Below are positions 1,021 through 25,712 of a DNA stretch of 57,078 nt, piece after piece. The notes under the pieces were generated by a model. That model worked only from the letters and a program-made list of their open reading frames with translations, did no database searches and was not told the DNA's origin. The DNA is from an uncultured Candidatus Peribacteria bacterium (GTDB lineage Bacteria; Patescibacteriota; Gracilibacteria; Peribacterales; Peribacteraceae). Position 1 is the first letter of the stretch; the number at the start of each line of letters is the position of its first letter. The translations under genes were made by a program, and so were the position numbers. Location of the stretch: assembly GCA_964434585.1 (NCBI GenBank), contig CAYSVN010000001.1, positions 1-57,078 of the forward strand. Direction: 5' to 3'.

Positions 1021-1065
1021 AAACTCATCCTAGCATTTTTTTAGTAAACAGCCTACAGTGGTTAA

Positions 1066-1641
1066 TCATAATGAAGCTTGATTCGCTGACCATTGATCTT
1101 TTGTAATTTCAAAACGATATGTTGGAATTTTCTGATTATTTTTTACGAAAAATGTTTCTTCCGCAGTTTGTACTTTTTGCATTCCAACTGACTGCATCAC
1201 TTTTTGACTTGCGATATTCCAGACAGCAACACCGGCATTAATTAATGGCATGTTAAGTTGTGTAAAACCAAATGCAACAGCAGATTGAATAGCTTCTTTC
1301 ATAAAACCTTTACCTCCATAGTCAGGATGTATCCAGTAGCCAAGATGTTCTTTTCCATTGGGGCCAATATCTATCCTGCCAATTGGTAAATGAGTGTTTT
1401 TATGATAGATAAAAAAATGAGCGCATTCATTATTAAGCCATTGATCTCGACCTTCCTCTAAGTTTTTATAAAGAGATTCTTTAGTCTCTGGCGGAGACCA
1501 ACTCATGCCATTATTAAAGCCAGGTTTGCGACTAGCAGACCATGTTAACTTTATTATTTCGTCAATTTCTTTTTGAGTTTGGGGAAATTTAAGAAATAAT
1601 CGCTCAGTTTTTAGTATGGTAGTAATAGGTGGAAAGTTCAT
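1066..1641 (-). CDS. GNAT family N-acetyltransferase (RimJ/RimL-like)
   Basis: GYWIHPDYGGKGFMKEAIQSAVAFGF acetyl-CoA binding-type motif; size typical of RimJ/L-like GNATs. Confidence 0.7.
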   Translation of the reverse strand: MNFPPITTILKTERLFLKFPQTQKEIDEIIKLTWSASRKPGFNNGMSWSPPETKESLYKNLEEGRDQWLNNECAHFFIYHKNTHLPIGRIDIGPNGKEHLGYWIHPDYGGKGFMKEAIQSAVAFGFTQLNMPLINAGVAVWNIASQKVMQSVGMQKVQTAEETFFVKNNQKIPTYRFEITKDQWSANQASL

Positions 1642-13453: not shown

Positions 13454-14383
13454 ATGAAAAAATTAGCATCATTACTATTATTAATTATAATACCAGCTGC
13501 CGCTTTGGCTGCTTTTCCTGATGTACCAGAGCAGTCACAGTACTTTGACGCTGTGGAGTACGCAAAACTTAATGGTATTGTAAATGGATATGATGATGGA
13601 ACGTACCGACCAAATGTAACAATTAACCGAGCGGAGTTTGTTAAAATATTAGTAGAATCTAACTTTACTGTAGCCGATGTAGAAAGCTGTACTGTGGATT
13701 CTATGGCGTACAGCGACGTGCCAAGTGCAGCTTGGTATGTGCCATATGTTTGTGTGGCAACAGAAGAAGGTATTATTAAAGGTTATGAAGATGGAACATT
13801 TAGGGCCGCTAATACTATTAATTTTGTAGAGGCTGCTAAAATTATTATTGCTACTGAAAATGGCGGAGAGATTGCTGGGGATCCTTGGTACCAGCCATAC
13901 GTTATTTCACTGAGTGAACGTAATGCTATTCCAACAGCTATAACAACATTAGATCATAATGTTACCAGGGGAGAAATGGCCGAAATGATGTATAGAACAT
14001 TGCAGTCTATTACAGATAAGCCTTCAACGACATATAACACATTGGCAGGCATTGAGGAGCAATCTGCAATATTAACGCCTGTAGATGGCAGTAATTCAAC
14101 AGGAGTAGCAAATGCTACGTGGGATGGTACAGAATATAAAGTGGTTGCAACATTTAGTAATCTTCCAGAAGCATTACCAGGCTTCTTTTATGAAGGCTGG
14201 GTTGTGCGCCCAGGTGCTAACCTGAGTATTATATCCACAGGTGTAGCTGACGGCATAACCGGTAATATATTTACGAGTAATCAAAATTTAATAGACCATA
14301 CTAGGTATGTGTTAACATTAGAGCCAGACGATGGAGATCCGGCACCAGCTCCAGAACATACTGTAGAAGGAGACTTTAATTAG
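13454..14383 (+). CDS. Secreted S-layer homology (SLH) domain protein
   Basis: Signal peptide LLLIIIPAAALAA; SLH-like repeats FPDVPEQSQYFDAVEYAKLNGIVNGYDDGTYRPNVTINRAEFVKIL and YSDVPSAAWYVPYVCVATEEGIIKGYEDGTFR. Confidence 0.75.
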   Translation: MKKLASLLLLIIIPAAALAAFPDVPEQSQYFDAVEYAKLNGIVNGYDDGTYRPNVTINRAEFVKILVESNFTVADVESCTVDSMAYSDVPSAAWYVPYVCVATEEGIIKGYEDGTFRAANTINFVEAAKIIIATENGGEIAGDPWYQPYVISLSERNAIPTAITTLDHNVTRGEMAEMMYRTLQSITDKPSTTYNTLAGIEEQSAILTPVDGSNSTGVANATWDGTEYKVVATFSNLPEALPGFFYEGWVVRPGANLSIISTGVADGITGNIFTSNQNLIDHTRYVLTLEPDDGDPAPAPEHTVEGDFN

Positions 14384-14385
14384 AA

Positions 14386-14405
14386 AAAACGACCCGTCTC
14401 CGCTC
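14386..14405. repeat. Right arm of the 20-bp perfect inverted repeat flanking the SLH gene
   Basis: AAAACGACCCGTCTCCGCTC. Its core GACCCGTCT.CGC is shared with the GIY-YIG element TIR at 37564. Confidence 0.9.
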
Positions 14406-14564
14406 ATTTATTATAGTAAGATGAAGTGAATGTATTATATTTATTAAAATCGATAGCTGCTTCGGGGTCTTTTCGCAGATAAAGCTAGCAGTAACTGCAT
14501 AAAGGGCGCGAAGCAATGCAATAACGAGCGTAGTGAGTTATAAATGGAGACGGCCCGTTTCTCC

Positions 14565-14765
14565 TTATCGATTTCGCCACCAGATCATCAGCAGGTTTGC
14601 TCCAAAGAAAATCATAACAAACGCAACGATGGTTGCCAATAAGTCTGGATTAACTAAAATTGCTACTCCTAGTAAAATAAGGAGTAATGCATTTGGTAGT
14701 AAAAAACCAGCAAACCGTTTTTGTAACGGGCTAGAGTATTTTTTATTGGAGTAAAAATTAAACAT
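14565..14765 (-). CDS. Small hydrophobic membrane protein (hypothetical)
   Basis: Two predicted TM segments (LLPNALLLILLGVAILV, IVAFVMIFFGANLLMIWW); start overlaps the stop of the upstream ORF. Confidence 0.4.
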   Translation of the reverse strand: MFNFYSNKKYSSPLQKRFAGFLLPNALLLILLGVAILVNPDLLATIVAFVMIFFGANLLMIWWRNR

Positions 14766-15172
14766 TATATAGTTCGTAGTTGAGCAGCTTTACCTCCTTT
14801 ATCAACTGCGCCCCCTAAACTTCTGTAGACAAGGTCAACAGTATCAAACAAGATCTGATTTGCTGTACCTGCTACAGCAGCAACCCCGTCTGGATTTTCA
14901 ACATTTTGATTAATAGTTCCCTTGTAGCGGTCCCATTCAGAGCCATATTGCTGTTTACGGTTTTCTCTGTAAACATCAGCATTTGATAAAAGATCTATTC
15001 CATCTGGTATCCAAGATCCTAGAATACCAATGGCTCCAGATACAGCGCCGCCAACACGACCACGAAAAATACCAGCGATATTTTTTACATTCTGCAAACT
15101 TCTACCTGCAACCCCAAAGGATTCAAGTCTATCTGGTTTTGCAGCCAAATTTTCAGATGGTGCGTTTCTCAT
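14765..15172 (-). CDS. Hypothetical protein with a glycine-zipper-like segment
   Basis: GRVGGAVSGAIGILG. Occupies the position after rpmH but lacks RnpA motifs. Confidence 0.45.
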   Translation of the reverse strand: MRNAPSENLAAKPDRLESFGVAGRSLQNVKNIAGIFRGRVGGAVSGAIGILGSWIPDGIDLLSNADVYRENRKQQYGSEWDRYKGTINQNVENPDGVAAVAGTANQILFDTVDLVYRSLGGAVDKGGKAAQLRTI

Positions 15173-15183
15173 AATTTAAATGA

Positions 15184-15348
15184 CTATTTACCTCCTTTAC
15201 CACCTTTAATACCAGCTTTTTGAGGAGTTAGAATTTTACGACCTTTACGACGACGTGCAGCAAGCACGCGTTTTCCACCTTTACTCTGAGACCTTTTAAG
15301 GAATCCATGAGTTCGAAGCCGTTTTCTCCATTTGAGTTTTCCTAACAT
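15184..15348 (-). CDS. rpmH: 50S ribosomal protein L34 (54 aa; below the ORF-track cutoff)
   Basis: Manual translation: [54 protein letters not shown]. Matches the L34 core THGF..R..T..G..VL..RR.KGR..L. Confidence 0.85.
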
Positions 15349-15363
15349 AGTTAAGAGAGTATA

Positions 15364-15969
15364 TTGATTAATATCGTAAAGTCAAATACTATGATCTCCT
15401 TTTTTATACCAATTTTCTATCGTAAAATATTCATGAATAATGCAGTAAATCAAGAATCAAAAATACTAGATGAGCCAGAGCTTATTGTAGAAACTGCAAC
15501 AGTAGCTCTAGCCGATGACATAAAGGCAGTTGGGTCATTTAGCTCTCTACCAAACATTGATGCAGGATTTTTAGATGGAATTCGTCATGAAAAAATTACA
15601 TACCTACTTGATATCTGGAGAGAAAAGATAGGAAAAGAGCTATGGTATGAGGTTAAAAAAGTAGGATTAGCATACGATGAAGCGGCTCAAGAATTAGGTA
15701 TACAGCTACTACAAGTTGAACAAGAAGAAGATGATTTTATTGTAGATATCCATACAGATTCTATTATTAAAAAAGTGGGGTTTACAAAAGAAAGTGTAAA
15801 ATTAATGCGTTTAAAATTATATCATACGCTAACAGACGCACTGGCTGAATTACTACAAGAGCAAAGAGTTCTTTTAAAGGTAAATACGAAGGTAAAAAAT
15901 GAACATGGCGTACAAGTACCAGTTATTAAGGGTGATGCCCGAGAAGCTCTTAACAAAGCTTTATCATAG
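15364..15969 (+). CDS. Hypothetical protein (alternative start ATG 15433)
   Basis: ORF only; acidic, helical-looking. Confidence 0.45.
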
Positions 15970-16158
15970 CAGTAATTAAACTGTGAAAGCCAAATGGAAT
16001 ACATTGGAGAAATAAGAAAAACCACTGAGATGAAAAAAGAGAAAATTGGAGATTAATCCAGTTGTCAAAAATAAGGATATTATCTGAAGAATAATTTCAC
16101 TCACTGTGATTAATTAGTGGTCAGTTAAAATAAGTAAGTTTACTATAGGGTTCATTAA

Positions 16159-16311
16159 TTCTCGCACTATCGAGAGGAGCTCTTGTGGCTTCCAAGGGAG
16201 TGAACGGCCATCCGCCGAACGCGATAGTTGACACGACTTGGAATAAGCCACTAAGTAAGCAGCGCAGTGCGAAACTTTTTTGTTACTTTTTTGGTTACAA
16301 AAAAGTAGGGA
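16159..16311 (-). repeat. Copy B of the structured dispersed element
   Basis: The reverse complement aligns over its whole length with copies A, C and D. It ends 20 nt upstream of the ligA start. Confidence 0.75.
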
Positions 16312-16321
16312 AAGAATGTAA

Positions 16322-18529
<2,208 letters not shown>

Positions 18530-18592
18530 TATTTTAAAATATTTAACTGTTCTTTTTTTATTTTTACCATTTACCATCAATAAGGAGAAACA

Positions 18593-18811
18593 ATGGTAGC
18601 GGTAATATTGTTGTGGCTATTCGCGCCTTCGTTTCATAAATACTACGTGTTTACACATAGAGTTTATGAACGATTTATGCGAAGTCATATGGACCCATTA
18701 GATGAGCAATATCACTTAAAAAGACGTAGGTTCTGGCAAAGAGTCGAACTTACAGCTCTAAGTGCCGTGATAGAAGCTTCAACATGGTGTTGTATTTTTT
18801 TACTCCAATAG
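18593..18811 (+). CDS. Small membrane protein (module 1), paralog of 19024-19344
   Basis: Strong SD AAGGAG at 18582-18587; N- and C-terminal hydrophobic segments around a basic RRRF core. Confidence 0.45.
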   Translation: MVAVILLWLFAPSFHKYYVFTHRVYERFMRSHMDPLDEQYHLKRRRFWQRVELTALSAVIEASTWCCIFLLQ

Positions 18812-19023
18812 AAAGGATAGCGTAAAGTTCTTGGTTGGCATCTTAATGAAAGGATCCAACTAATAGTCAGCATTCATTGCTGACACTAGCGGCATCGCAA
18901 GATGCCGAACAAGCCCAATGCAATGTTGCACCGGGCTTTTAATTTGACAAATAATTATTAATAGTTCAAAATATAATTCGTTCTTTTTTCATATTTCATA
19001 CCTCCCAAATTTTAAGGATAAAC

Positions 19024-19344
19024 ATGGGACCTGCTCTTTCCATATTTATGAAGGGATTGATGTTTATTGCTATCTTTCCTTTCACAATCTTTATTGTCTG
19101 CCGAATGCGCCATAGCTTACTTGGCTACCTTTGGTGGCATAGTGAGAACTATGACAAGTTTAGACAAAAAAGAGACTACGAAGGTAGTGAAGACGCAATG
19201 ACCTTCAGGACCAGGAAACGCCGCTTTAAAAAACGTGCGTTGGCAATATCTGCCATTGCTACTCTAGAAGTAGCATTATTCCTCATCTACAAATCTCCGT
19301 GGATCATCCATCATTTTGGGTGGTTATTTATCCCAGAAGGATAA
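19024..19344 (+). CDS. Small membrane protein (module 2)
   Basis: SD AAGGA at 19014-19018; same TM-basic(RKRRFKKR)-TM layout as 18593-18811. Confidence 0.45.
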   Translation: MGPALSIFMKGLMFIAIFPFTIFIVCRMRHSLLGYLWWHSENYDKFRQKRDYEGSEDAMTFRTRKRRFKKRALAISAIATLEVALFLIYKSPWIIHHFGWLFIPEG

Positions 19345-19441
19345 AGAACATGGCTTAACTTTAACGTTGAGCACCACGGCAACCATTGCGTTGCCGAAAT
19401 AACCCAACGCCACTTCGGCTGAGGGTTTTTTATTTGGTGTA

Positions 19442-19469
19442 TTGACAAAAACAATAAAATATGTAACAT
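19442..19469 (+). promoter_or_regulatory. Sigma70-like promoter of module 3
   Basis: TTGACA - 16 nt - TAACAT. Confidence 0.45.
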
Positions 19470-19522
19470 AGGATAGTTAGCAATCCTGCTAACAAGTTCT
19501 TTTCTACTACGGAAGGTATAGC

Positions 19523-19699
19523 ATGGAAGTTATCTTTATGCGGATCGAAGTGGAAACATTAAGCAGGCAACAAGTTCTTTGTTGCGTACTTGAGGAGGTT
19601 CTACTCCGGCTCTGTAAAACTACACATTTAACCGTAACTCAGCACGAGTACGGAGAACCAAAGCCAAATTTGGGACAAGTTCTAGATGTTTTAGTTTAA
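19523..19699 (+). CDS. Possible 58-aa ORF (below the track cutoff)
   Basis: Manual translation MEVIFMRIEVETLSRQQVLCCVLEEVLLRLCKTTHLTVTQHEYGEPKPNLGQVLDVLV; GGAAGG lies 6 nt upstream. Could instead be an untranslated leader. Confidence 0.2.
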   Translation: MEVIFMRIEVETLSRQQVLCCVLEEVLLRLCKTTHLTVTQHEYGEPKPNLGQVLDVLV

Positions 19700-19722
19700 T
19701 TATTTTCACACGGAGGTGAAAC

Positions 19723-19914
19723 ATGTCGACAGGAAATTTTGTGGAAGACATTCTAATAGTCTGTGTTCCGTACATCATCCCTGTTATGTCTATCGGCTTC
19801 GCTCTGTTCTGCAGACGCAAAACCGAAGGCATTGGTGCTCTCATTTTTGCTAGCAGCTTGCTAGTAGTAGGGGCACTTATTGTTGGAACGGTTGTCTGCG
19901 ATTTTATCTCGTAG
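19723..19914 (+). CDS. Small two-TM membrane protein (module 3)
   Basis: SD GGAGGTG at 19712-19718; hydrophobic ILIVCVPYIIPVMSIGFALF and ALIFASSLLVVGALIVGTVV. Confidence 0.45.
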   Translation: MSTGNFVEDILIVCVPYIIPVMSIGFALFCRRKTEGIGALIFASSLLVVGALIVGTVVCDFIS

Positions 19915-19944
19915 GCATAAATTGTTCCACAGAAAAGAGACCAA

Positions 19945-19985
19945 GGGTTAAACGCAAACAGTGAGCGCGTTCAACCCTTTTTTTT
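19945..19985 (+). terminator. Rho-independent terminator
   Basis: GGGTTAAACGC...GCGTTCAACCC stem followed by T8. Confidence 0.7.
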
Positions 19986-20020
19986 GCGTAAAAAACCGGT
20001 TTACTGTATAATAAAAACAT

Positions 20021-20431
20021 ATGGATACCACACTTTACTTAACCACGGCCGAACAAGAATTACTAAATAATATTGATGTAACGTTAACAGAAAACTTCTC
20101 TGTAGAAGCAGAAACATTCGGTAAGTATGAAACTATAAAACAGCTGCAAATGCGCCATTTTTTAGCAGACTTTACTGCTTATCCAGAAATTAATACACTT
20201 ATTGAAAAATTAAAAAGTAACCCTACTGACATTACAAAAGAAGACTTAGAAACCATGAACCCTGAGTTCCAAGAAGAGGTTTACTTTGCAATTGGAGCAA
20301 GAGGGGTTGATGTATTTGTGCAAGAACTTATAAAAAATATCTCTGATGAAGATGATATGGAAGCTCTTTGTTTTTTGACAACTGTTCGCCATAAATTACT
20401 CGATATTAACTCAAAATCTAAACATGTTTGA
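20021..20431 (+). CDS. Hypothetical acidic protein; first gene of the giant-protein operon
   Basis: TGTATAAT 8 nt upstream of the ATG; its stop overlaps the next start by 8 nt. Confidence 0.55.
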   Translation: MDTTLYLTTAEQELLNNIDVTLTENFSVEAETFGKYETIKQLQMRHFLADFTAYPEINTLIEKLKSNPTDITKEDLETMNPEFQEEVYFAIGARGVDVFVQELIKNISDEDDMEALCFLTTVRHKLLDINSKSKHV

Positions 20432-21068
20432 TACTGAAAACCTATCTTCGGCAGAAATAAAACGCCTTCAAGAGGCTAGCGAGGTTTATAGAAGTCTTGA
20501 TAGCCGTGAACGTGAAATTCTTGATGCAATTGACAATAGCGTTACCCAGCGCGAGGAATTAGCAGTAAATCTTAAAGACAGACTTAATGGTGAATACCAT
20601 GATGAATTAATTGATCATTTAGCGATGATTCATGAGCAAAAAGAAGCTAAAAAGGAATATACTTCTTGGGGTTATGTTAAAGAAAAAGCAGGCCAAGCTG
20701 CTAAGTGGGCCTGGAAGCATAAATGGTGGATTGCCGGCTTAACAACTGCTGCCATTTTTGGTTATGGTTATTATAGATATGGTGATTTAATGGGAGGAAT
20801 TCAAGTTATGAAAAATATCGGCGGCGGTATTGCAAACATGTATGGCGCCGCAACCGAAAAAATTGGTGGTTTCCTTGGCGGCCTTAAAGAGCGCCTTGGT
20901 GGCCTTTGGGGAGGCGCTGAAGAAATTGCGCAAAAATTACCAGGAGTTCCTGAAATTCCAGGTGGAGTGCTTCCACCAGATGGAGTAATACCGGAAATTC
21001 CAAGTATTCCAGAAGTACCAGTCCCTACTGATGGACTTCCTAGCCTTGGAGACTTTGACGCAACTTAA
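20424..21068 (+). CDS. Hypothetical membrane protein with a Gly-rich and Pro-rich C-terminus
   Basis: Helical N-terminus, TM WWIAGLTTAAIFGYGYY, GG-repeats GGGIANMYGAATEKIGGFLGGLKERLGGLWGG, then PEIP repeats. Confidence 0.55.
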   Translation: MFDTENLSSAEIKRLQEASEVYRSLDSREREILDAIDNSVTQREELAVNLKDRLNGEYHDELIDHLAMIHEQKEAKKEYTSWGYVKEKAGQAAKWAWKHKWWIAGLTTAAIFGYGYYRYGDLMGGIQVMKNIGGGIANMYGAATEKIGGFLGGLKERLGGLWGGAEEIAQKLPGVPEIPGGVLPPDGVIPEIPSIPEVPVPTDGLPSLGDFDAT

Positions 21069-21098
21069 AATCGTTTTTAACACATACAAACTAACATT

Positions 21099-24000
21099 AT
21101 GGCCGATTCGGGAGAAATACCTCAGGACTACGATAGTCTAGAGCGAAAACAACCAACAGCTCCGGTAGTACAACCAGCAGGTGAGGCCGAGCTTCCTCAG
21201 CATGGTGATCTGCTAAGGCAATTGCAGCAAACAATTGAAGCAAAAAATGTTAAGCTTATTGACAAAGAATTATTTGAAGCCTTAGCTTTGTTGGCTGCCT
21301 ATAAAGAAGATTGGAAAGAAGTTGAAGAGCTTCTTAGAATTGATAATTTTCCATCACCTACAAACGAAGGGCGCAAGCAACCAAATTTTACAGTTGATAA
21401 TCGATCGCTTGTAGAATTACACAAAAAATTGCAGCAATTTTTACGCCTTGCACGCTACAAGCACTTAGGTCGTGATGTTGGGCCTGCCTATAACAAAAGA
21501 ACGTTAACCCAAATTCAGAACACAACACTTAAACGAGTTGCGCAATTTTTAGAAGCTAGAAATACATACGTAGAAAAATACTGTAATGCAGATGTATACA
21601 TTTTCAATGAGATGTTAAAAGGGTATTTAGATAATGAGGTTATTCAAAAAAATGCAAATGAAGAATTAAAGAAATTTTTAGTAACAAACTACACACTTGC
21701 ACAGGAGTTAGGTTTGCCTGATATACCGTCTAAATATATTAATGAAGATGTATTACAGCGAATAACAGAAAGAGATGTTCGTGTTATGAAAATTATAGAA
21801 AATTGCATGAGAATAGATAAGAATAAAGAAGGTGAAATTGAAGCTTTTGAAGTAGATAAAAATAAAATAAAACAGTATCTTGAGTCGTTACAACTTGAAG
21901 CTGACCAGCAACAAATTGATGCGTTGTTTTTTATTGTTAAGGTTTTAATTGATGAGGAGAATCATGAGCAGCTTTACCAGGTTTCAGACAGTCTACGTAT
22001 ACCATTTGAAGATATAACCATTACTCAAGCTGCACCTTATTTAAATGAAAAAATGGAAATACTTGATGAACATTTAGGTGGTGCGTTTGAGAAGATTCGT
22101 GGAGCGGTTTCGAAACCAGTACTTAAACGCTACATGGAAGATGGTATTTCATTGCCAAAACTACCAAAGCTTTCAGAATCATTTAAAAAACTTAAGTTCG
22201 AAAACTTGCCAGCAGATGTAAAACTAGAACTAACCAAAGACATAAGAGCAGCTCTAGAAAACAAGCTTAACGATAACATTCCAGATGGGTTTAATACAAT
22301 TGATGATGATAAGTTAGTTGCAGAGATTGGTAATGTTCTCAGCTATATGAAAGGAAATAATACAACATTACTTAGTACGACAGATAGAACTGTTGGAGAA
22401 GAGGAAAACAAGCGTACATTAGAAGGAAAACCAAGTAGTTTTTCTGCGCGTGAGTATTCGATTATGCAAGCTCTTAAAGAATATATTTCTTCGGAAGTTT
22501 CTAGTGAGGCAGTTATTAATTCACTCCTTATTTATAATCGAGACGAGACGGTGCAGAAAAAAATGGTAGAGACCATTACTGATATGCTTACAGATTCATC
22601 TGACTCTCTTTCGCATGATGAAGCATTACAACTTCTTTTCCGTTTAAAATTGTCAGAGAGAGGAACAGGAAAGCCTCAAAGTAGTCCACTTCTTTTAATG
22701 GAAGGTTTACGACTATTACAAAGTCAAGACAGTGTCCTTGTGGACGACCGTAAACAGGGGCAAATTACTATCCAGGCAGCTGGCGAAATTCATATTGCTC
22801 ATGAATTTATGATGATGATTGCAAGAACGGCAGCCTCTGGTAAATTAGAAATCCCCGATGGTATTGAGGTGAGCGATGAAATGATGGACTTCTTAACATA
22901 CCAGGTAGGCCTTGGTGTAGAGCAATACAAAGAAGAGGAAACCACATTATTAGAAACCATAAAAAAATATAAATTACCTATTGCACTTTTTGTTCTTATA
23001 GCTGGTGGAATTGTTTTGTTTAGACCTGGAAAACGAGCAACGGAATTTGCAATTCAGGTAAATCGGGCTAAAATGCAAAACTTTACCCGAGGGACGTTAG
23101 CAGAATTTAAAAAAGCATACCCTAAATTGGCGCAACAGTTTTCTGATGACGAGATAAAAGCTACCAGAAGAATTGCCCGTGAAGTACTGCATGACTATAA
23201 CCAGCTTGAAACTCTAAATTTTCAAAGAAGAGGGGCATTGATTCGTACATTTAACCGTATAAAACAACAACAGGCGTTTGACATGGTAGAGCTGGTAAAA
23301 ACGCTAAAAAATATTAGAAATCCGCGTAGTATTATTGAAAAAATGGCAAACAAAGCCTTTTTGATTACAGATTCTGACCCCGCTTTAGTTGCTAGACTAG
23401 TGAATAAAACAGTAGGCTCACGAGAAGAGCTTACAAGTATTATGAAGCAAGCAGGGTATGCTGATGAAGTTATTAAAGATGCTATTCATGAGCTTGGCGC
23501 AACGAACATTTCTCATTTTGAAAGGCAGGAAAAATTATTTGCAGAAGCCGAAGAATTAATGAAAAGAACTACTAATGTAAGCACTTTAGATGATGCTACG
23601 AGAGCTGCAGAGATCGAAAGTTTAAAGGCTGATTTTAAAAAGCTTTCTACCAATCTAGAGAATGCGGCTGCAGAGATAAATCCTGCGTTTAAAGAGAAGT
23701 TTATTAAGCATCTACAACAAGAGTATCCTCACTTACCTCAGGGGAGCATGTCATCAGTTGATGAAGTTGTTGAGGGAGCGATTAGTGCCGCTCCTCGAAT
23801 TACCCATATTGAACAATTATCTAATATAGATGCTTTTAAAAATCGCCTTACATATATCTTGGAGGAGCTTGATGAAATTAACGCTATGAAAACTGGGAAA
23901 ATTGCACGCCTAAGAGAGTTTAATAAAAATACTGTGCGACCTTTTATGAAAGAACTTGCTGTATTTGAAGTAGACCATCCAACTGTACGTCGAACACTAG

Positions 24001-25712
24001 CAAATCAAATTATGGGAGACGTTATAACAGATGCGGATTGGGATATTATTAAATCCGCCCATGCAGAAACAGACATTGTAAAGAAGTCTGCAAAACTAAA
24101 AGCTCTTGAGCACTCAGTTGCAGATTTACCGCTTAAAGATGAAGCGCGTATTACGAAGCGCAATAATATTAGAAAATTAATGCGCACAGGGATAACAGGG
24201 GAAGTTGCGTTAGATGCTATGATACAACCCAGTACCGTCGATGAGCTTGCAGATGTTCTTAAAGGTTTAAGCCCAAAACATTGGGCACCAAAAATTACTA
24301 CTTACCTTAAGCGTTATCCTGGTCAATTAAATAGTGTTGGCAACATGCTTGATGATACTAGCGTCGTTACTGCAGCTAAACAGGCCGATGGAGTGGCTGA
24401 GTTATCAAGAATCCGATCTGCAGCTGTGCAAACATCACAACTACTAAGGAGAGGGTTTGGTCATGCAATTACAAAAGGTCTCCCTGTCGCCGGGTTTATA
24501 CTTGAAGCTTTTTTAATTCGTAGTACATATAATCAATTGCAAGCCGCAGAGAAACAAGGTGATGGAGCACAAATAGAACTTTTAAAAAGCAAACTTGATA
24601 CTGATGTGCAGGCATTTTCAAGCGAGGTAGTTCTGAGTGGATTTATGTATAGAGCTTCTCAATTAGGACAGCTTGGAGTAAAAACAACAATAGTCGGTGC
24701 TCTAGCTTTAACGGCTGGTCATTTAACAAAAGATGCTCTTTATACTTACGCAGATGAGATAAATAATATGACATATGACCGCTATCGTTCAGAGCGACCA
24801 GACCAAAACCTTCAAACAATAAAAGGTGCTACATTTGCAGCGCTCGTTGACCCAGAAGGTGTACAAAAATATGCCGAGTCAGCTGCTCTAGATGCTTACA
24901 TCGAAAATCTAAACTTAGCGCAGCTCAATGAATTAGACATGCTCTATGGAAGGGAAACATTGGCCTTTAAATTAGCAAAAAGTGAGCATAAATCATACGA
25001 AGAAATATTGAATAGTCAAAACTTACCAAGAGTACTTAAAGAAGAAAAAGAAAGCTTTATAAAAAGAGCAATTGCTGAATTCGTGCAATATAGTGAAGGG
25101 AAAGATCTAGAATGGGGAGAGCGCCTTGAGCAAGCAGTGGCTTACGCAGAACTTAAGCACAAGGAACGTCGTTTAAAATCATTATATGGAGAGAAGGCCT
25201 GGCAGCAGTCTATTGATGGCATGCCTACGCTTCAGGGGGGATTAGATCAATACCCAGTAAAAACAATGACTCCTGACGAAGTATTAACCAATGGTGGTTA
25301 TAACACTCAACTACTTGAGGCTTATAAATATGATCAGGCGGTACAATGGCTTACGGAATTTGAACTTGAAGTTGCAAATTTAAAGACAATTGATAATCAA
25401 CAAGACAGAAGCTTTGCAGAAATAGGTGTCAAAGCGAGGCTATTTACACTGTTCGCTAATGTATTTTTTATACATGATTATCATGTATACCTTTCCAAGG
25501 CACCCAATGGAGAACGTCATATTTATAAGCAAGCAAGCTTTGGACCAGAAGCACATAGGCAATTTGAATCTTTTCTTAAAGAATTAAGTGGTAAAGAACA
25601 TATCGCAAATCGTGTTAAGGCTGTATTAAATTTACAAAATTCTCTGCGAGAAGCCTTTAATCCTGGCAACATAATACTACAAAAAGGTAAAAGTAATTAT
25701 TTTGGAGACTAA
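21099..25712 (+). CDS. Giant (1537 aa) orphan protein, predominantly helical, with about three hydrophobic segments
   Basis: Uninterrupted 4.6-kb ORF; hydrophobic PIALFVLIAGGIVLF, GLPVAGFILEAFLI and TTIVGALALTAGHL; no catalytic motif recognised. Confidence 0.7.
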   Translation: MADSGEIPQDYDSLERKQPTAPVVQPAGEAELPQHGDLLRQLQQTIEAKNVKLIDKELFEALALLAAYKEDWKEVEELLRIDNFPSPTNEGRKQPNFTVDNRSLVELHKKLQQFLRLARYKHLGRDVGPAYNKRTLTQIQNTTLKRVAQFLEARNTYVEKYCNADVYIFNEMLKGYLDNEVIQKNANEELKKFLVTNYTLAQELGLPDIPSKYINEDVLQRITERDVRVMKIIENCMRIDKNKEGEIEAFEVDKNKIKQYLESLQLEADQQQIDALFFIVKVLIDEENHEQLYQVSDSLRIPFEDITITQAAPYLNEKMEILDEHLGGAFEKIRGAVSKPVLKRYMEDGISLPKLPKLSESFKKLKFENLPADVKLELTKDIRAALENKLNDNIPDGFNTIDDDKLVAEIGNVLSYMKGNNTTLLSTTDRTVGEEENKRTLEGKPSSFSAREYSIMQALKEYISSEVSSEAVINSLLIYNRDETVQKKMVETITDMLTDSSDSLSHDEALQLLFRLKLSERGTGKPQSSPLLLMEGLRLLQSQDSVLVDDRKQGQITIQAAGEIHIAHEFMMMIARTAASGKLEIPDGIEVSDEMMDFLTYQVGLGVEQYKEEETTLLETIKKYKLPIALFVLIAGGIVLFRPGKRATEFAIQVNRAKMQNFTRGTLAEFKKAYPKLAQQFSDDEIKATRRIAREVLHDYNQLETLNFQRRGALIRTFNRIKQQQAFDMVELVKTLKNIRNPRSIIEKMANKAFLITDSDPALVARLVNKTVGSREELTSIMKQAGYADEVIKDAIHELGATNISHFERQEKLFAEAEELMKRTTNVSTLDDATRAAEIESLKADFKKLSTNLENAAAEINPAFKEKFIKHLQQEYPHLPQGSMSSVDEVVEGAISAAPRITHIEQLSNIDAFKNRLTYILEELDEINAMKTGKIARLREFNKNTVRPFMKELAVFEVDHPTVRRTLANQIMGDVITDADWDIIKSAHAETDIVKKSAKLKALEHSVADLPLKDEARITKRNNIRKLMRTGITGEVALDAMIQPSTVDELADVLKGLSPKHWAPKITTYLKRYPGQLNSVGNMLDDTSVVTAAKQADGVAELSRIRSAAVQTSQLLRRGFGHAITKGLPVAGFILEAFLIRSTYNQLQAAEKQGDGAQIELLKSKLDTDVQAFSSEVVLSGFMYRASQLGQLGVKTTIVGALALTAGHLTKDALYTYADEINNMTYDRYRSERPDQNLQTIKGATFAALVDPEGVQKYAESAALDAYIENLNLAQLNELDMLYGRETLAFKLAKSEHKSYEEILNSQNLPRVLKEEKESFIKRAIAEFVQYSEGKDLEWGERLEQAVAYAELKHKERRLKSLYGEKAWQQSIDGMPTLQGGLDQYPVKTMTPDEVLTNGGYNTQLLEAYKYDQAVQWLTEFELEVANLKTIDNQQDRSFAEIGVKARLFTLFANVFFIHDYHVYLSKAPNGERHIYKQASFGPEAHRQFESFLKELSGKEHIANRVKAVLNLQNSLREAFNPGNIILQKGKSNYFGD

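Follow-up and report, generated by a model that had tools for sequence, protein, structure and literature searches.

A tandem array of putative small membrane-protein genes with strong Shine-Dalgarno sites in a Peribacteria genome that makes little use of them

How does a bacterium that seldom uses Shine-Dalgarno (SD) initiation come to carry a row of small genes that each begin with a strong SD site, and what might such genes encode? This question is raised by an array of three short modules in an uncultured Candidatus Peribacteria bacterium. The stretch analyzed here, referred to as the window, comprises 57,078 nucleotides (nt) and is contig C1 (CAYSVN010000001.1) of a metagenome-assembled genome (MAG; GCA_964434585.1) of 1.19 Mb in 92 contigs with 38.5% GC. 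The array occupies the gap between the DNA ligase gene ligA and a three-gene orphan operon, whose products have 136, 214 and 1537 amino acids (aa); a block of ribosomal-protein genes (rplC–rpsE) follows next downstream. Bacteria of the candidate phyla radiation are uncultured episymbionts with mostly unexplained lineage-specific genes. This locus would offer a compact example of small membrane-protein expression in a genome that has largely abandoned SD initiation, and of expression signals that are kept around an almost freely evolving cargo. It also shows where strain-level variation concentrates. We consider it probable that the three modules are fast-evolving, SD-dependent, autonomous genes for small membrane proteins that form helical hairpins.

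Each of the three co-oriented modules consists of a promoter with a perfect TTGACA box, a strong SD site, a small open reading frame (ORF; P1, P2 and P3, respectively) and a stem-loop stack or terminator (Table 1). This is the arrangement described in the initial annotation of the sequence, and every element listed there is present. The TTGACA boxes that it placed before modules 2 and 3 are accompanied by one at module 1 as well. There are 231 TTGACA words in the genome, counting both strands, and the probability of three on one strand within 936 nt is P ~1e-4. Similar GC-rich hairpins and a terminator follow modules 1 and 2, and module 3 has a terminator of its own. The chance of a frame staying open from the given ATG for at least 72, 106 and 63 codons is 0.009, 0.001 and 0.017 for P1, P2 and P3, respectively, with a product of about 2e-7.

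The array is set apart by its translation-initiation signals. All three ATG codons lie 4–5 nt after an SD word of 6–7 nt and share an AAAC(A)ATG start context. In the genome as a whole, 714 of 789 long ORFs (~90%) lack any SD-like word of at least 4 nt at positions −20 to −4, compared with 85% of random positions. This means that long ORFs are no richer in SD words than random positions, and it confirms that the strong SD sites noticed earlier at the modules are atypical. An SD word of 6 nt precedes 6 of the 789 long ORFs (0.8% of gene starts), and genome-wide it is found before 15 small intergenic ORFs, P1, P2 and P3 among them.

A different mode of initiation is suggested for other genes by the position of their promoters. 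A −10 hexamer (at least 5 of 6 matches) occurs 5–9 nt before the first ATG in 22.7% of long ORFs, compared with 2.7% of random positions, with a peak at 6 nt. Because the −10 boxes lie so close to the ATG, promoter-proximal genes are presumably largely leaderless. The orphan operon downstream of the array has a start of this type, with TATAAT at 20007–20012, 8 intervening nt and the ATG at 20021. The modules thus appear to stand out as leadered, SD-dependent units in a leaderless, SD-independent genome, and not as foreign DNA.

No 16S gene was found in the MAG. In six relatives of the same family (L028–L033), the 3′ end of the 16S gene contains an invariant TCCTTA, and the anti-SD core reads TCTCC in three relatives and TTTCC, CTTCC and CCTCC in one each; the family-type tail is ...UCUCCUUA. 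Modules 1 and 2 share the word TAAGGA, which is exactly complementary to this invariant TCCTTA. Scarcity of SD sites has been described elsewhere: Candidatus Peribacter riflensis appears in a published list of SD-scarce organisms in which CCUCC is not conserved (PMC10783764), and some Parcubacteria have lost the anti-SD (PMC9297842). The genome studied here shares this published background, SD sites being hardly used at all and the anti-SD core drifting among family relatives. However, those papers describe a genome-wide trend and not a minority of strongly SD-led cassettes as in the array. What is new here is the contrast between the SD-scarce background and a few strongly SD-led, autonomous, fast-evolving cassettes, together with direct evidence that the array is a hotspot of strain variation.

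Strong promoters and AAGGA words also accompany further small membrane ORFs elsewhere in the genome. Three with near-consensus promoters and AAGGA in the 5′ untranslated region (5′UTR) are located on contig C21 (978–1352 and 2501–2737) and contig C25 (14676–14999). Together they may point to a class of small membrane-protein genes, spread over the genome, that have leaders and use SD sites.

Modules 1 and 2 have related flanks. Their promoters and 5′UTRs are ~83% identical over 54 nt, a score reached by 0 of 2000 shuffles, and none of the 229 other TTGACA-anchored genomic sites aligns as well. At the 3′ end, the second hairpin and the terminator foot are common to both modules and show paired changes: the hairpin has U-A changed to A-U, and the terminator has G-C changed to A-U. 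The motif CGGCAnC-loop-GnTGCCG-GAA..A.CCCAA.GC is found, genome-wide, in these two 3′ stacks only; four pattern matches in metagenomes are chance hits within high-GC coding DNA. The ORF bodies, by contrast with these flanks, can barely be aligned. P1 and P2 have no detectable similarity by BLASTP (E = 0.29), and their global alignment is weakly above shuffles (p ~0.017), mainly owing to KRRRF/RKRRF and the hydrophobic segment that follows. The paralogy proposed earlier for the two proteins therefore holds by way of the flanking DNA, which is the main evidence, and does not show in the proteins by BLASTP.

Because the flanks are clearly homologous, modules 1 and 2 represent either a tandem duplicate or a re-used expression chassis. 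They appear to be a diverged tandem duplicate in which the signals were kept and the ORF bodies changed to near saturation. Module 3 has no detectable relation to module 1 or module 2. The possibility that its leader, or the 58-aa ORF within it (ORF58), is a degenerate copy of module 1 was set aside, since the similarity is not significant.

The array is the main site of strain-level variation in the stretch compared. Three haplotypes were compared, namely the window and two further assemblies of the same species (L036 and L023+L034), which were retrieved through exact-protein look-ups of neighboring genes. L036 is an ENA scaffold that covers window positions 14393–21528, and L023+L034 come from Joint Genome Institute (JGI) sample 3300039175 and cover 14085–19135 and 19137–24431, respectively. 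Nine variant sites are found in 10.3 kb, and six of the nine fall within the 1.5-kb array, which makes up 14% of the length (p = 5e-4). The single-nucleotide polymorphisms (SNPs) within ORFs, which lie in P1 and P3, are all at third codon positions (4 of 4; p = 0.012), and three of them are synonymous. The synonymous bias that had been named as a touchstone for coding sequence is thus present among the three haplotypes and supports a coding role for the ORFs.

As a separate observation, the JGI assembly breaks inside P2, where L023 ends and L034 begins two positions further on. This break may reflect strain heterogeneity at the locus.

Table 1. Features of the array and its flanks, with variants among the three haplotypes (window positions)
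Feature	Position	Strand	Description
ligA	16331–18529		upstream flank
Module 1	18512–18945	+	
Module 1 promoter	18512–18540	+	TTGACA-17-TAAAAT; −35 box overlaps last ligA codons; homologous to module 2 promoter
Module 1 5′UTR	18549–18592	+	conserved GTTC+T7 tract 18549–18559; SD TAAGGAG 18581–18587
P1	18593–18811	+	72 aa; short hydrophobic N-terminus, basic middle KRRRF, C-terminal transmembrane-like segment
Module 1 3′ stack	18812–18945	+	hairpins 18833–18861, 18866–18884 and 18890–18907 (GCAA loop); terminator 18911–18938 and T tail
Module 2	18944–19441	+	
Module 2 promoter	18944–18972	+	TTGACA-17-CAAAAT
Module 2 5′UTR	18980–19023	+	GTTCTTTTTT 18980–18989; SD TAAGGA 19013–19018
P2	19024–19344	+	106 aa; predicted transmembrane segment 1 ~8–26, 45-residue charged loop, predicted transmembrane segment 2 ~72–89, aromatic tail
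Module 2 3′ stack	19345–19441	+	hairpins 19353–19372 and 19377–19396; terminator 19397–19431 and T6 tail
Module 3	19442–19987	+	
Module 3 promoter	19442–19469	+	TTGACA-16-TAACAT
Module 3 leader	19476–19722	+	5′ hairpin 19476–19493; ACAAGTTCT x3; ORF58; SD GGAGGTG 19712–19718
ORF58	19523–19699	+	58 aa; weak SD GGAAGG
P3	19723–19914	+	63 aa; predicted two-transmembrane hairpin, acidic N-terminus, CRRKTEG loop
Module 3 intrinsic terminator	19943–19987	+	13-nt arms (to 19979), then T8
Orphan operon	20021–25712		products of 136, 214 and 1537 aa
Variant, module 1 5′UTR	18549–18559		T7 in window, T8 in both other haplotypes
Variants, P1			R30R, S31S, W65C
Variant, module 2 terminator	19417		G>C, inner stem
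Variant, P3			G50G, synonymous

The predicted products are small and hydrophobic. A layout of two transmembrane (TM) segments around a basic core had been proposed for both P1 and P2; it holds for P2, the loop of which ends in the basic stretch RTRKRRFKKR, and does not hold for P1, which has one clear TM-like segment and a 12-residue hydrophobic N-terminus. AlphaFold2, run without an alignment, models P2 as a helix-turn-helix hairpin (predicted local distance difference test score 75.6, predicted template modeling score 0.36), a result that is compatible with a membrane hairpin but not discriminating. For each of P1, P2 and P3, the annotated frame is the best of the six. Public pipelines called P1 and P2 as genes and did not call P3.

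As had been remarked at the outset, the peptides belong to no recognized family. Searches of P1–P3 against Pfam, NCBIfam and PADLOC gave no match at curated cut-offs, and the best E-values (0.009–0.14) were to unrelated families; PHROGs likewise yielded nothing above sub-threshold noise. P2 matches itself only in a word index of 5.8 billion clusters, and HMMER over 1.84 billion representative proteins gave no real homologue for it; two extra matches were discarded as translated tandem-repeat junk. P3 is absent from the protein collection. The sole relative of P1 in that collection is a 99% strain variant, called as a gene in two other assemblies. Among 200 genomes of the family, no relative of P2 or P3 was found.

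The array is likewise missing from equivalent positions in other genomes. In ten relatives, unrelated genes are found downstream of ligA, and in two relatives that have the 136/214/giant operon, other genes and no such modules lie upstream of it. Because relatives that keep the operon lack the array, the array is not part of the operon's system, and the idea that it is a conserved neighbor of the giant-protein operon has to be abandoned. A tblastn comparison of 415 ORFs from the equivalent loci of relatives with the array gave chance-level matches only, and a derivation of the array from a neighboring or equivalent-position gene was rejected on that basis.

In relative G198, the same operon has a similar TATAAT-proximal start (L021 ~2575–2596). 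The promoter of the 136/214/giant operon therefore appears to be conserved, and the DNA upstream of the operon appears not to be.

Nor did the suggestion that the modules are compositionally foreign stand up. The GC content of the array is 0.389 compared with 0.386, and its tetranucleotide distance falls at the 41st percentile, which indicates native bulk composition; collections of phages and plasmids contain no DNA match to the region. The array is atypical at the codon level only. It resembles phage morons in that each unit is autonomous, with one small ORF between its own promoter and terminator; like them, the array lies among conserved genes, is missing from relatives and has atypical codon usage. 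Unlike morons, it has no prophage context, no PHROG match and a native bulk composition, and it is flanked by housekeeping genes (ligA, the conserved operon and ribosomal-protein genes). A reading as integron gene cassettes was also rejected. An attC site needs ~57–140 nt with R″/L″-L′/R′ arms and a nearby integrase; the array hairpins are too short to be attC-type sites (7-bp stems, ~20 nt), and the window contains no integrase.

Several observations weigh against the view that the modules encode proteins. The dicodon scores, trained on the long genes of this genome, are −0.15 for P1, 0.02 for P2 and 0.03 for P3, and all three lie within the range of spurious open frames. Windows of real genes with hydrophobicity matched to P1 and P2 have a mean of 0.60 and a 5th percentile of 0.24, and those matched to P3 have a mean of 0.38 and a 5th percentile of 0.12; the neighboring 136- and 214-aa genes score 0.82. 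In addition, the GC content at third codon positions is 0.33–0.46 compared with 0.29 for the genome, and P2 lacks codon-position GC periodicity. About 12% of random small intergenic ORFs resemble two-TM proteins. The SNP sample is tiny (n = 4, two of them 3 nt apart), and P2 contains no SNP. Homologues are found nowhere, which confines the test of conservation to the strain level. Some other small membrane ORFs with strong promoters have dicodon scores that are equally low.

Taking both sides together, we still favor SD-dependent genes for small membrane proteins, and the following mechanism is proposed. Each unit would start with a near-consensus promoter of the sigma-70 type. Modules 1 and 2 would be transcribed with a U-rich 5′UTR of ~45 nt, and module 3 with a leader of ~245 nt that may also encode the 58-aa protein. 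These leadered mRNAs would rely on a real SD site, with TAAGGA pairing with the UCCUUA-3′ of the 16S tail. Each product would be an inner-membrane helical hairpin with a basic loop, likely oriented with the N-terminus out, the loop in and the C-terminus out. The basic cytoplasmic loop would be framed as TM-45 residues-TM in P2 and as TM-CRRKTEG-TM in P3, and P1 would be a shortened version. The stem-loop stack and intrinsic terminator would then insulate each unit from the next. We infer transcription, translation, membrane insertion and topology of P1–P3 in this scheme from the sequence.

Tandem duplication would have given rise to modules 1 and 2, whose coding bodies would have diverged almost to saturation while staying open. 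With signals kept and bodies diverged but open, selection would therefore act on the property of being a small basic/hydrophobic membrane protein, and not on a particular sequence. As to function, our guess is that these are membrane-active small proteins, either toxin-like or modulators of membrane complexes, that undergo fast evolutionary turnover.

One alternative, which we regard as unlikely, would make the array a tandem locus of the type I toxin-antitoxin kind, in which the small membrane proteins are toxic when overproduced and each is restrained by an antisense or 3′-overlapping small RNA (sRNA). It is compatible with the explanation favored above and would sharpen the function proposed there. 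The zone of sRNA-mRNA interaction would then lie in the structured 3′ regions, as in Bacillus txpA/RatA and bsrG/SR4. Fozo et al. (2010) searched for type I loci as tandem, self-contained units with similarity beyond the ORF, and for toxins of <70 aa that are hydrophobic and have a TM segment (PMC2887945). The array agrees in that its units are tandem and self-contained (~430–500 bp), modules 1 and 2 are similar outside the ORF, and the small ORFs have TM segments and polar or aromatic C-termini. Fast turnover and orphan status are also typical of such toxins. As to size, P3 (63 aa, two TM segments) fits, P1 (72 aa) is borderline just above the 70-aa limit, and P2 (106 aa) exceeds it. Most known type I toxins have one TM segment.

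The RNA structure of the modules bears on this alternative in two ways. The 3′ regions are exceptionally structured: 18812–18945 folds with −51.1 kcal/mol (z = −6.15), which places it in the top 0.25% of 11,134 intergenic windows of 130 nt, and 19345–19435 has z = −4.13. The 5′UTRs of modules 1 and 2, on the other hand, are short and lack significant structure (z = −0.8 and +0.2), unlike those of typical toxin mRNAs. On the minus strand, weak promoter-like sites (18999–18970 and 19729–19702; 9 of 12 matches) and a terminator-like hairpin (18884–18866) could serve an antisense RNA, but these promoters are weak, and shuffled sequence is expected to contain as many promoter-like sites overall. 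Pfam, NCBIfam and PADLOC linked none of the peptides to an established toxin family (Hok, Ldr/Fst, TxpA, Ibs, ShoB, TisB and others).

An imperfect hairpin is also present inside the P1 coding sequence (18633–18670), with 18-nt arms that are 83% complementary and a 2-nt loop.

Compared with established type I loci, namely ldr/rdl, ibs/sib and zorO-orzO of E. coli and txpA/RatA and bsrG/SR4 of B. subtilis (PMC2887945, PMC3919570), the array likewise repeats units of ~0.4–0.5 kb within one intergenic gap. Both have a promoter of their own, a small hydrophobic ORF, a terminator and similarity beyond the ORF, and in both, evolution is rapid, homologues are scarce or absent and parts of the RNA are strongly structured. 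Unlike those loci, the array encodes predicted two-helix hairpins of 63–106 aa and has short, unstructured 5′UTRs in modules 1 and 2, and its proteins match no toxin family in sequence. Two related suggestions made earlier found no backing. For a holin-like array, PHROGs and Pfam gave no holin match and there are no lysis neighbors (the neighbors being ligA and the orphan operon), and for a bacteriocin-immunity array, the 10 kb to each side contain no genes for a bacteriocin precursor, for its modification or for ABC export.

The second alternative, to which we give a rather low probability, is that the modules function through RNA, with ORFs that are incidental. The 3′ stacks would act as sRNAs, or as sRNAs derived from the 3′UTR, and the module 3 leader as a CsrA-binding or CsrA-titrating RNA, so that the SD-like A(N)GGA words would be CsrA sites and not ribosome sites. 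Such a reading would account for the low dicodon scores and flat codon-position GC, and for the stronger conservation, between modules 1 and 2, of the non-coding ends compared with the ORFs; the strong fold of the module 1 3′ stack (z = −6.15) also fits it. Against it stand the third-position bias of all four ORF SNPs and the improbability, by chance, of three open frames behind correctly spaced SD-ATG pairs. Moreover, no Rfam family was found for the region at the gathering threshold (noise only at E up to 10), and no further copy of the hairpin motif is present in the genome or in metagenomes. Interpreting the ACGG words as guanidine-II (mini-ykkC) was rejected both by eye and by Rfam.

The module 3 leader deserves separate consideration here. 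The initial annotation gave it three ACAAGTTCT repeats and a 58-aa ORF, and all of these are present. The copies start at 19492, 19570 and 19675, and because the spacings are 78 and 105 nt, all three are in frame with ORF58; two lie inside it and encode QVL. Since there are just 30 copies in 2.37 Mb (both strands), three within 190 nt are not due to chance. The remaining genomic copies lie within unrelated coding repeats.

The leader is also rich in GGA, with 9–10 GGA words in ~250 nt compared with 2.2 expected, which places it in the top 0.2% of windows and makes it the most GGA-rich non-coding window after the RNase P RNA. Together with a genome-encoded csrA, this enrichment favors a CsrA-binding role. 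However, most of the GGA words are predicted to be paired, with no preference for loops, and the Glu and Gly codons of ORF58 also account for the enrichment. The predicted pairing weakens a CsrA-sponge reading.

With regard to csrA itself, the gene (68 aa, contig C22 11579–11785) has a full SD site, TAAGGAGG, and normal codon usage. It is transcribed divergently from a 63-aa two-TM ORF, which has a promoter of the TTGACAAATAAT type like modules 1 and 2 and the word AAAGGAGGTGAT in its 3′ end, right before a terminator; the two genes together span contig C22 11219–11785. CsrA is found in 50 of 81 genomes of the family, often as tandem copies.

Two other GGA-rich stretches were observed. The most GGA-rich window of the genome is at the edge of contig C10 (1–330), where a coding tandem repeat contains GSDDDGDTGDLGTDSDD x3. 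On contig C82 (~1063–1500, minus strand), a GGA-rich structured stretch has the motifs GGAGGAAAGTC... and ...ACAAAACTCGGCTTATA; recognized by eye only, it is presumably the RNase P RNA gene.

A third alternative, which we judge improbable, is that the modules are what is left of an old insertion or duplication, decaying and without function, with ORFs that are open by luck. Orphan status in all databases, atypical codon usage and the absence of the array from relatives at both flanks could be explained in this way. The array is the segment with the most polymorphism among strains, which fits relaxed constraint, and the N-terminal hydrophobic segment of P1 appears truncated compared with P2. 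Yet promoter, 5′UTR, SD site, start, frame and terminator are intact in 3 of 3 modules and in 3 of 3 haplotypes. The flanks of the duplicate are conserved and its ORF bodies, although saturated, are open; the SNPs are third-position-biased and mostly synonymous, and the array has no similarity to genes at equivalent positions in relatives.

A further notion, which is very improbable, is that the ORFs serve as long leader peptides in attenuators coupled to translation, whose terminators would control read-through into each following module and, at the end of the row, into the 136/214/1537-aa operon. Each ORF does stop shortly before a terminator stack, and 18830–18844 (15 nt) can pair alternatively with 18899–18913, overlapping hairpin 2 and the terminator foot. 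However, every downstream unit including the operon has its own promoter, ORFs of 63–106 aa contain no regulatory-codon runs, the alternative helix would lie beyond the reach of a ribosome at the P1 stop, the alternative pairing of module 2 amounts to 8 AU-rich bp as read by eye, and relatives that bear the operon lack the array. Both this and the remnant explanation fit less well because the signals are intact in all haplotypes and the downstream units have promoters of their own.

Returning to small membrane proteins as the favored products, bacterial examples such as AcrZ, MgtS and KdpF are mostly <50 aa and single pass, and they adjoin or are co-regulated with the complex that they modulate. 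Like these, the array proteins are small, hydrophobic, predicted to be helical, lineage-specific and, in the case of P3, missed by gene callers. The short mRNAs of their own from which AcrZ, MgtS and KdpF are made are likewise proposed for the array. Unlike them, the array proteins have no evident partner complex at the locus.

A broader proposal would be that SD initiation survives in this lineage as a minority "channel" for fast-evolving small membrane-protein cassettes, with the array as a hotspot of their birth and turnover. The cargo, free to diverge on a conserved expression chassis, would then be membrane-active peptides of a toxin or competition type, possibly gated by RNA through a type I antitoxin or through CsrA acting on the A(N)GGA/SD words. 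We put this forward as speculation that is unlikely to hold as a whole. If the proteins are toxins or host-interaction factors, the locus would provide one of few testable functional handles on such an organism and a natural system in which to compare SD-dependent with leaderless translation. Otherwise, it would be an ordinary cluster of orphan small ORFs.

A minor observation concerns the gene on the upstream side of the array. In ligA, a single in-frame TAG is found at 17351–17353, where LigA normally has Ala, and the gene is called as a split of 340 + 378 aa identically in two independent assemblies (L023 and L036). Because both assemblies show the same split, the TAG is not a one-off assembly error. 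In family relatives, ligA is unbroken at about 720–750 aa.

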